A DNA stretch of 64,000 nucleotides, taken from the IMG/VR virus record IMGVR_UViG_3300001200_000009. One strand, written 5' to 3'. The DNA comes from a virus. This document shows, one piece after another, positions 33,359 to 62,880 of this stretch. The translations under genes and the position numbers were made by a program. The notes beneath the pieces are model-generated. The model was not told the DNA's origin and did no database searches. It saw nothing but the letters and a program-made list of their open reading frames with translations. How positions within the stretch are numbered: position 1 is the first letter of the stretch; every line of letters begins with the position of its first letter.

Positions 33359-33943
33359 CTAAACAAATAAATCTGTTTGAGCGCCTAGATGTTCGTTAAG
33401 AGCGTAATTGAGGGCTACAAAGTCAAGAGATTCGTCTTGAATATCGTCTCCATCTAGAGTGGCCGGAGAGTTACGATGAACTGTGACGCCAATTGGACCC
33501 CACTTCATTGTCTCTTTGTCCTTACCAAGAACCATACCGCCCGACATACCAACAACGACTGGCTCGGCTGGCGTTTTGATAGCCCCAATCCATAGACCTT
33601 CTTCGCGTTCCATATGAACCCAACCATGCCGAACTTCAAGATTACGCGAACCTGCCGGATATCCAAGACAGACAATTTCTTGACCAACATAAGGCTCAAT
33701 CAGAGCAGGACAAAGGTTGTCGAATCCATAAGATGAGATGTCCATGCCCTTCATGCGATGTTGCCATTTGTCGAAATGAGGAGTATCAGGCGGAGTATTT
33801 TGGGCACATTCATTTAGACAATGAGCTGCCGTGAAATAGCCTCCCCATCCCTTCCAATAAGAAATGAACGTTTGCTGAGTTTTTGAGTTATAGAATAGAC
33901 GCTTAACGTCTGGTTTGAAATCTTCCCAGTTGCTTTTTAACAT
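33359..33943 (-). CDS. Trypsin-like (S1) serine protease
   Basis: FTAAHC and GMSGG catalytic motifs. Confidence 0.8.
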   Translation of the reverse strand: MLKSNWEDFKPDVKRLFYNSKTQQTFISYWKGWGGYFTAAHCLNECAQNTPPDTPHFDKWQHRMKGMDISSYGFDNLCPALIEPYVGQEIVCLGYPAGSRNLEVRHGWVHMEREEGLWIGAIKTPAEPVVVGMSGGMVLGKDKETMKWGPIGVTVHRNSPATLDGDDIQDESLDFVALNYALNEHLGAQTDLFV

Positions 33944-34204
33944 GGTAGTAATTCTCCTTCGAATGCGGTAATCATGTCTACCGTAAAATCAGACGGTAAT
34001 GATGCAGAGGCTCTTGTTGGATAGAACACGACTTCCGGATAGTTGACTGTTGCGGGATGAGTGTCGACCATAATGGCGGTTTCAAGTCTGGCAAATGACA
34101 GACCTGGGTCAGCTAACGGTTCATCATACTCTACCGTAGCTCGACGAACCTTATCGCGTAAACGCGCGAAGGCGACCTTACGGTCTAATGTAGCAATGGG
34201 AGTT

Positions 34205-34561
34205 CTAGACATCAGCCGATGTAACGGCTTTTTCTACTGGCCAGTCCCAATCTCCAGGAATCTTACGCTTCGAACCACCATTTTCGTGGACGAAGTCGAA
34301 GAATACTTTTTGCGATGTAATGAGCGCGGTTTCGGCTTGAGTCAGTTCAATGGTTAGAACATTAGCCACCCATTCGATTCCAGCACCAGTTGTCTTACGA
34401 GCAATAAGATTTGAATTCACTGACTTACGTTCTCTGAAATCGGCTCTTAGGGTACCGCTCTGCATATCATGAGCGTCGATAAATTCTTGGGTATATTCGA
34501 TTTCGATTGTGCTATCGAAGCCAACGACCACAGGATTTACTTCAAAGGTTTTTGTTGACAT
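34205..34561 (-). CDS. Late hypothetical protein (possibly structural)
   Basis: TATAAATA at about 34581-34588; beta-rich. Confidence 0.6.
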   Translation of the reverse strand: MSTKTFEVNPVVVGFDSTIEIEYTQEFIDAHDMQSGTLRADFRERKSVNSNLIARKTTGAGIEWVANVLTIELTQAETALITSQKVFFDFVHENGGSKRKIPGDWDWPVEKAVTSADV

Positions 34562-34722
34562 TGTTACTCCGTTTCAGGAGTATTTATACGGATGGGACGC
34601 AAAGAAAACCCTCCTGTTCGATTGCTACTAACAATCTAGCAAGAGGTTTCTAAGCTAGCTACACTTAGGTGGAATCATTGCAATGACTCCTCATTCTTCT
34701 ATTATCTGGGACTCCTACTTCG

Positions 34723-34793
34723 CCAGCCCGCTTTACCACTAAGCTATAACCCCGGAATGCGGAATTAGGAAGAATCGAACTCCCGACGGCCAG
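34723..34793 (-). ncRNA. Circularly permuted tRNA-like module (YrlA-like topology)
   Basis: Order: T arm, TAATTCC-loop-GGGGTTA acceptor, D arm; closed by CTGGCC/GGCTGG. Confidence 0.75.
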
Positions 34794-34850
34794 TTTTTCA
34801 GAACCATTTAACTATTCTGTTATATACTACCGGTCTGGGTTGTAAACGAC

Positions 34851-62602: not shown

Positions 62603-62734
62603 AGAGTCAAATCACGCTGCTAAAAAGGCGCTCTACCACTGAGCTATCCTCCCATAAAGGTGGGAGGAGTGGGATTCGAACCCACGACCCGCTGCTCCGA
62701 ATGCAATAGAAGTAAGCGAACATATAGCGACTCT
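62603..62734 (-). ncRNA. GCUAU/GAUUU motif RNA, copy B, with permuted tRNA module (62628-62692)
   Basis: AGAGTC/GACTCT; T arm, TCCTCCC-loop-GGGAGGA, D arm. Confidence 0.8.
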
Positions 62735-62741
62735 ATTTTAA

Positions 62742-62880
62742 AGGACTAAATCATACAGCTAAAAAGGCTCGGTGCGTTTACCATTTCGCCACCCTCCGCA
62801 TGGTTAGCCGAGGGGCAGGACTCGAACCTGCAAATACCGAGTTTGACAATATTAGAAGTAAACGTGTATATAGCAATCCT
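62742..62880 (-). ncRNA. GCUAU/GAUUU motif RNA, copy A, with permuted tRNA module (62768-62841)
   Basis: AGGATT/AGTCCT; CTCGG, T arm, CCCTCGG-loop-CGGAGGG, D arm, CCGAG. Confidence 0.8.

Follow-up and report, generated by a model that had tools for sequence, protein, structure and literature searches.

A minus-strand locus between positions 34813 and about 34601 is a conserved, structured gene for a non-coding RNA of an uncultured T4-like phage, as evidenced by its sequence elements, its membership in a promoter family, its conservation and its covariation; expression of the gene is predicted from its flanking signals. The phage is represented by an IMG/VR virus record of 159 kb (88% complete), of which the 64-kb stretch of DNA analysed here (the window) is a part. 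Among the sequencing runs listed for the locus there is no RNA run; they comprise three DNA runs from a single algae metagenome, its likely source, and one run with a small share. Two homologous loci were identified, one truncated (L131) and one of full length (L182). The RNA is predicted to consist of two domains: a sealed tRNA mimic, in which the two acceptor strands are joined by a short loop and which is mounted on a stem of its own, and a four-way junction ending in an intrinsic terminator. From its sequence, we read the RNA as a tRNA mimic of YrlA type on a new scaffold.

Architecture and boundaries of the RNA gene

All elements named in the initial annotation, from the promoter through the U-run, were confirmed on the minus strand by checking their coordinates. 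The individual parts of the mimic were assigned from the sequence, the hairpins H3 and H4 from sequence and folding, and helix P from folding of the window and of L182. The features of the locus are the following.

34819-34847, minus strand: early promoter of T4 type, with GTTTAC at 34847-34842, a 17-nt spacer and TATAAC at 34824-34819
34799-34813, minus strand: 5' leader AGUUAAAUGGUUCUG, providing the 5' strands of S1 (34813-34809), S2 (34806-34804) and S3 (34803-34799)
34794-34798, minus strand: 5' side of the internal loop, AAAAA, between handle and closing stem (AAACC in L131, AAAA in L182)
34723-34793, minus strand: sealed tRNA mimic, from the YrlA core match and covariation over three homologues
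34793-34788 with 34728-34723, minus strand: closing ('anticodon') stem CUGGCC/GGCUGG
Between the 5' strand of the closing stem (ends 34788) and the T arm (starts 34784), minus strand: variable loop GUC
34784-34768, minus strand: T arm GGGAG-UUCGAUU-CUUCC
34767-34761, minus strand: acceptor 3' strand UAAUUCC
34760-34754, minus strand: acceptor-sealing loop GCAUUCC
34753-34747, minus strand: acceptor 5' strand GGGGUUA, forming a 7-bp stem that includes G3.U70 and G4.U69
Between the acceptor 5' strand and the D arm, minus strand: U8 A9
34744-34730, minus strand: D arm GCUU-AGUGGUA-AAGC, then G26
34700-34722, minus strand: conserved 23-nt 3' block CGAAG-UAGGA-GUC-CCA-GA-UAAUA, with the 3' side of the internal loop, the 3' strands of S3, S2 and S1, and the GUC bulge
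34601-34699, minus strand: 3' domain, a predicted four-way junction of P, H3, H4 and H5
34699-34694, minus strand: GAAGAA, pairing with the U-tail as helix P
34690-34671, minus strand: H3 hairpin GGAGUCAU/AUGAUUCC
34668-34650, minus strand: H4 hairpin CUAAG/CUUAG
34646-34610, minus strand: H5, two-tier terminator hairpin, with the U-run 34608-34601 after it

The promoter belongs to a large family. A scan of the whole 159-kb record for GTTTAC-N15-18-TANNN[TC] returned 47 matches on the minus strand, together with 9 loose and unrelated ones on the plus strand. Nearly all of the 47 carry an extended consensus that consists of an A/T-rich part upstream, GTTTACa, and 'tagta' or 'atga' preceding TATAAT, and about 45 sites have the form GTTTAC-N17-TATAAT, all of them on the minus strand. 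Copies on the minus strand are found, for example, at window positions 407, 2326, 3454, 33020, 33356, 36897, 40336, 63269 and 63879, and their TATAAT is often followed by aAUAG. Since the site at 34847 fits this family, we regard the promoter as well supported, and the RNA is inferred to start near 34813. A matching promoter is found at the equivalent position ahead of the RNA in both L131 and L182.

The RNA so delimited has a length of about 212 nt (34813 to about 34601, minus strand), and its full-length natural variants span 212-218 nt. At its 3' side the two-tier hairpin (34646-34610) is followed by GUUUUCUUU, and the U-run 34608-34601 marks the 3' end. Directly past this terminator, at 34588-34581 on the minus strand, lies TATAAATA, the late-promoter word of T4; the next gene begins with an ATG at 34561, and its SD is buried by a hairpin (ACUCC...GGAGU, minus strand, window 34561-34600). 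Because the two-tier hairpin and U-run are followed by a late promoter that belongs to the next gene, the RNA is taken to stand alone and not to be a leader. The proposal of a stand-alone RNA is supported by the promoter family at one end and the hairpin with U-run at the other, and the locus would be transcribed as an independent early unit of about 212 nt. We note that TATAAATA is equally placed in L182 (1230-1266), and that a late promoter combined with an SD-burying hairpin resembles the T4 e/soc/I-TevI style of late-only translation.

Within the mimic, the nucleotides of the tRNA elbow are complete, comprising U8-A14, G18/G19 with the T loop, and the 15:48 pair. The leader, 20 nt long up to the closing stem, pairs with the 3' block through S1 (AGUUA/UAAUA), S2 (UGG/CCA) and a putative S3 (UUCUG/UAGGA, from RNAalifold), and by virtue of this pairing the module is carried, like that of Y RNAs, by an imperfect stem of its own. 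Under the closing stem there are a purine-rich internal loop and a GUC bulge that is invariant, and the 3' block is near-invariant between the window and L131. The module had been described as heading the RNA; it does not simply do so, as the leader pairs with a block on its 3' side. The three hairpins themselves and the U-run are present as described; folding additionally closes them into a four-way junction by means of helix P. In vivo the mimic presumably takes the L-shape of a tRNA.

Homologues, covariation and folding

A search for homologues yielded L131 and L182, both of which reside on contigs from macroalgal-surface metagenomes, have a shared gene neighbourhood and keep the helical architecture. 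L131 is a 1.4-kb JGI contig that was found by a search of a large protein index and encodes a YAcAr/SLOG protein 57% identical to that of the window; promoter and RNA directly follow this gene, and the contig ends within the 3' domain. L182 is a second contig from the sample of L131, found by searching with the upstream protein of L131. Its RNA is flanked by a SLOG gene (50% identical to that of the window) and a trypsin-like gene. The latter (window 33359-33943, minus strand; L182 1264-1848) encodes a protein of 194 aa that matches Trypsin_2 weakly and is 75% identical between window and L182; downstream of the RNA, this gene is the conserved neighbour. It is located two genes further on in the window than in L182, as the window has an insertion of two small ORFs, 34205-34561 and 33937-34212, between the RNA and the trypsin-like gene. 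A homologue of ORF 34205-34561 follows an NAPRTase gene in contig L129. When five flanking ORFs were scanned against Pfam, only YAcAr and the weak Trypsin_2 match were returned, and no DUF7873 neighbour.

A model (R1) that was built from the window and L131 only, with L182 left out of building, finds L182 over its full length (61.5 bits, E 6e-13). No further homologue of the RNA was recovered through direct scans of IMG/VR for close relatives of the two flanking ORFs, which gave no match, beside IMG/VR relatives of the trypsin-like gene, or in GTDB genomes. Likewise, exact-block scans of IMG/VR gave chance coding matches or none, a scan of the JGI metagenome collection gave two chance matches, and R1 run over 131 fetched loci detected tRNA-like cores only, none of these searches adding a member to the family. 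Next to the genes for more distant SLOG and trypsin-like homologues there is no gap large enough for the RNA.

Identity between window and L131 is 85.5% for the RNA, compared with 65% for the SLOG coding sequence next to it and 52% for the region further upstream. Between window and L182 the identity of the RNA is 63%, about equal to that of the coding sequences, and the fold is kept. In an alignment of the three sequences over 35 pairs, fitted to the model and consisting of macroalgal-surface metagenome sequences throughout (n=3), 98.1% of the cells are paired and 8 pairs show a double-sided change. None of 500 shuffles reaches the observed level, and partners slid by 1-3 columns leave 37-54% of cells paired with 0 or 1 double change; as only three members are known, these statistics rest on few sequences.

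Inside the module, with the tertiary pair included, 22 of 23 pairs are standard in all three homologues, the exception being 3:70, where L182 has a non-standard pair. Both partners have changed in the closing stem, in the T stem (A-U to G-C), in the D stem (U-A to C-G), at three pairs of the acceptor, in S2 and at 15:48. The Levitt pair 15:48 is switched from G:C to A:U in L131; a G:C/A:U switch at this position has been reported for YrlA (Chen et al. 2014, PMC4201824). In S2, L182 has CGG/CCG for UGG/CCA, that is, one compensatory U-A to C-G pair, and S1 shows three one-sided compatible changes, with UGGCU as the 3' strand in L182. Helix S3 (UUCUG/UAGGA) contains a C.A mismatch in L182 and is left as unsupported.

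Applied unguided to the raw pair of window and L131, RNAalifold returns the cloverleaf together with the leader/block helix, and the unconstrained minimum-energy fold of L182 is the whole proposed architecture. The single-sequence minimum-energy fold of the window is a rod and not a cloverleaf, with the proposed fold 0.6 kcal/mol above it. The tRNA-like fold claimed earlier is thus recovered from L182 and from RNAalifold, but not from the window's single-sequence minimum. The 3' domains of window and L182 each fold to P, H3, H4 and H5 (z of -4.0 and -4.2, with none of 200 shuffles reaching this stability). Three pairs of the H5 stem are changed on both sides, and sequence changes in H3 and the terminator leave the structure intact. 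The best-conserved primary sequence is that of the leader and block around the module; H3 and H5 vary freely.

These comparisons bear on a further reading of the locus, namely that it is a decaying remnant of a tandem tRNA duplication. The T arm and acceptor of one copy would have been joined to the acceptor and D arm of another, and the product would be functionless or a passive part of the SLOG 3' UTR or of the leader of the next gene. Junctions of adjacent tRNA genes have an equal linear order, and the only DNA match to the module in phage databases is such a junction, between tRNA-Ser and tRNA-Ala of Mycobacterium phage DyoEdafos (L179, 65831-65886; 88% identical over 55 nt). R1 also matches many tRNA gene junctions, and the phage is rich in tRNAs and odd tRNA-like RNAs. 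Yet the RNA has its own promoter and terminator, past which a separate late promoter serves the downstream gene; conservation of the RNA exceeds that of the adjacent coding sequence (window versus L131); and none of the phage's tRNAs is closely similar to the module. The compensatory changes across helices and at the tertiary pair largely refute a remnant, which we regard as barely credible. The DyoEdafos match is attributed to generic tRNA similarity. As an aside, this junction illustrates that tandem tRNA genes can seed, or pass for, permuted modules.

Relation to YrlA and other tRNA-like RNAs

The best Rfam match of the RNA is to the tRNA-like core of YrlA (RF02553, positions 26-82 of 114; 22.8 bits), with an E-value of 0.021 on a 601-nt stretch and of 0.0013 on the whole 159-kb record; the match is confined to the core and does not reach the YrlA gathering score of 69 bits. 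YrlA RNAs are tRNA-like bacterial and phage Y RNAs that are bound by Ro60/Rsr (PMC4201824; bioRxiv 10.1101/312249). Further traits of YrlA are modification by TruB and DusA and a Ro60/Rsr (TROVE) gene adjoining it on the same strand. The RNA described here has in common with YrlA the order of stem strand, variable loop, T arm, sealed acceptor, D arm and stem strand, the full set of elbow and tertiary-pair nucleotides with a covarying 15:48 pair, the position of the module atop an imperfect stem built from distal sequences, and the variable size of acceptor stem and loop. [quoted passage not shown] The order of arms, the match to the YrlA core and the covariation together substantiate the earlier view of the locus as a third permuted tRNA-like module, with a sealed acceptor.

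No TROVE/Ro60 or RtcB gene was found in the 159-kb, 88%-complete record. A candidate Rsr motif (GNCGAAN0-1G) was rejected: it is present only in the window (GGCGAAG), with GGCAAAG in L131 and GGCAAG in L182, and is located 3' of the module, whereas that of YrlA is near the 5' end. The start of the block, CGAAG, is accordingly unconserved (CAAAG in L131, CAAG in L182).

The same phage carries modules of a handle type (window 62603-62880). They have the sealed tRNA core in common with the RNA described here (R1 matches module 2 at 43.6 bits, over the core only), as well as the phage, the strand and promoters of early type. A search with the pattern GCUAU...UUACUUC finds the four known handle copies in the phage and, at up to 3 mismatches, none near 34600-34850. 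The absence of the GCUAU/GAUUU handle reported earlier is therefore confirmed, and the module is placed on a different scaffold. In contrast to the handle-type modules, the locus has no GCUAU, UUACUUC, GAUUU or ACAGCAA, its flanks share nothing with theirs, and its RNA is longer, has a second domain and does not adjoin a TerD-domain gene. Besides 16 tRNAs detected by ARAGORN in the phage record, which mostly encode CCA, the phage also carries several odd tRNA-like RNAs.

Sealed-acceptor modules are common in phage tRNA regions and arrays, as seen in a scan of IMG/VR for the T-loop-to-D-arm pattern. Among about 120 fetched loci, 12 outside this phage have 7/7 complementary acceptor positions. 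The sealed tRNA mimics at the scanned loci are on other scaffolds, and the scaffold of the present RNA is found at none of them. A flank motif GUUACUUC is found in at least 5 of the 12 (L097, L030, L056, L074, L113) and another, CUAACAGCA, in two (L084, L087), with neither seen in L099, L014, L048, L096 and L055. Against the YrlA model in full length, L097, L113, L030 and L074 reach 30-45 bits, which is less than its cutoff, and GOLLD RNAs are found near the modules of L014 and L096.

In circularly permuted tRNA genes of the type known from Cyanidioschyzon merolae, the 3' half of the tRNA is encoded upstream of the 5' half. The locus resembles these genes in that the 3' half precedes the 5' half and both are joined via the acceptor ends, but differs from them in having no CCA, no anticodon-loop halves and no bulge-helix-bulge, and in outer ends that continue into the S1-S3 handle. 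By inspection of the sequences, a 7-nt anticodon loop could not be rebuilt consistently over the three homologues; CUGAAAA in the leader was likewise inspected as an anticodon loop and dismissed, its flanking pairing being unconserved. To our knowledge, the splicing endonuclease needed for the permuted-tRNA pathway is absent from bacteria.

T4 itself encodes two small stable RNAs of unknown role in its tRNA region, RNAC and RNAD (Uzan and Miller 2010, PMC3014915). These are likewise small non-coding RNAs of a T4-like phage with ties to the tRNA world; unlike the RNA described here, they are located inside the tRNA cluster and co-processed with tRNAs. We liken them by description and not by sequence.

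Acceptor stem and possible roles of the RNA

The G3:U70-equivalent pair of the module, which had been called Ala-like, is present in the window, but not in its homologues. Pair 3:70 is A-U in L131 and a non-standard A.G in L182, and G4.U69 of the window is A4-U69 in L131. In L182 the acceptor stem spans 8 positions, and two neighbouring pairs in it are non-standard, A.G at 3:70 and G.A at 2:71. The acceptor-sealing loop differs in length (7, 5 and 6 nt among the homologues) and in sequence. Past the acceptor strand, both the window and L131 have a G in place of A, and CCA is encoded in none of the three homologues. The module is without a close match among the tRNAs of the phage, so that an origin from one of these was also discarded, and the phage tRNA-Ala is among the least similar. 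As G3:U70 is unconserved, A73 is missing in window and L131, CCA is missing in all three and tRNA-Ala is dissimilar, we reject a conserved alanine identity, and Ala-like as a functional identity of the module is not supported; the sealed tRNA mimic RNA is probably not a chargeable alanine tRNA.

A Mycobacterium smegmatis YrlA with a 7-bp acceptor is cleaved by RNase P and receives CCA in vivo (PMC4201824). By analogy, cleavage by RNase P is possible for the RNAs of the window and L131, whose acceptors also have 7 bp. The A.G and G.A pairs in the acceptor of L182 render a conserved RNase P site doubtful.

The same YrlA precedent is one reason to consider a two-piece, chargeable tRNA- or tmRNA-like RNA. 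RNase P would cut the loop, trimming and CCA addition would follow, AlaRS would recognise G3:U70, and the 3' piece would add a function. Two-piece tmRNA genes of alpha-proteobacteria and cyanobacteria resemble the locus in several respects: the acceptor 5' strand comes after the T arm and the acceptor 3' strand, a G3.U70 pair is present as in the window, and a longer structured 3' part follows the module. The second Rfam match is indeed to the permuted cyano_tmRNA, although it is weak (16.6 bits). The locus departs from two-piece tmRNA in its full, canonical D stem, which is unlike that of the tRNA-like domain of tmRNA, in having no A73-CCA (G follows the acceptor strand in window and L131, while phage tRNAs mostly encode CCA), in a G3:U70 pair that is unconserved (A-U in L131, A.G in L182), and in having no tag reading frame. 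ARAGORN at default settings returns nothing at the locus; a 'permuted tmRNA' call at relaxed settings was discarded as implausible, its coordinates running past the segment and its tag lying inside the terminator. The phage moreover already has a one-piece tmRNA candidate elsewhere. Taken together, we consider a chargeable RNA very unlikely. The one-piece candidate is located outside the window (G000:C1 50698-51300, minus strand) with the tag AKTVYAANDNFAFGELARVA*, and a second ARAGORN call overlaps it.

Coding readings fared no better. A 22-codon ORF from an AUG in the leader was rejected, the AUG being missing in L182, as was a 7-codon ORF in H3 with GAGGAG-N8-AUG, whose SD and AUG are not kept in L182. 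Since H3 keeps its structure and changes its sequence, there is no conserved reading frame, which also speaks against a chargeable tmRNA-like RNA. SD-like GGAGUC repeats were considered as binding sites and dropped, their second copy being lost in L182.

Our best explanation of the whole is an early non-coding RNA of two domains that carries a YrlA-type tRNA mimic and acts like a Y RNA, and we see about an even chance that it is correct. Its mode of action, by analogy that of a Y-RNA-like protein-binding tether or decoy, is put at even or just below. In this scheme the tRNA elbow would engage a host factor that recognises tRNA, e.g. RNase P, TruB/TrmA, the CCA-adding enzyme, PNPase or a tRNA-directed defence protein, while a second partner would be bound by the 3' junction together with the conserved stem and bulge. 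The RNA would be made early in infection, at the time of host take-over and counter-defence functions, and it would be neither a translating nor an alanine-accepting tRNA.

The roles of the two domains may also be reversed, such that the module is a processing or stability device, with RNase P or tRNA-binding proteins defining the ends or protecting the RNA, and the 3' domain is the effector, which would sequester proteins or base-pair with other RNA. Both full-length copies have a strongly structured 3' domain (z about -4) of conserved layout; protection from nucleases has been discussed as a role of the tRNA module of YrlA (Chen et al. 2014, PMC4201824); and the M. smegmatis YrlA cut by RNase P has a 7-bp acceptor, as have window and L131. 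The conservation of primary sequence, however, peaks in leader and block and not in H3 or H5. Apart from one 13-nt match at chance level, the 3' domain has no complementarity of at least 13 nt to the rest of the genome, and the 8-position acceptor of L182 with its A.G and G.A makes a conserved RNase P site doubtful. We therefore consider a processing device rather unlikely.

A more far-reaching form of the tether or decoy would be a Ro60-independent class of phage 'Y-like' RNAs, made early, whose elbow captures a host tRNA enzyme or defence protein and whose stem, bulge and junction recruit a second factor, possibly the syntenic YAcAr/SLOG protein or the TerD-domain protein of the phage (47965-50139). 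We offer this generalisation as a speculation that is more probably wrong than right by a good measure. If true, such a Ro60-independent Y-like RNA would re-route host RNA metabolism or disarm a defence.

For reading loci of this kind, the tempting alanine identity is corrected: G3:U70 is an accident of lineage. The roughly 45 early promoters on one strand provide a ready map of the early transcription units of the phage, and the three natural variants of the RNA form a compact test case for what the elbow binds in early infection. Mimicry of tRNA by Y RNAs has so far been tied to Ro60/Rsr. Here, the sealed core is found on an unrelated, covarying scaffold in an 88%-complete record with no TROVE gene, and other scaffolds are present in the same genome, which supports the view that the sealed tRNA elbow is portable and is combined by phages with a variety of RNA bodies.
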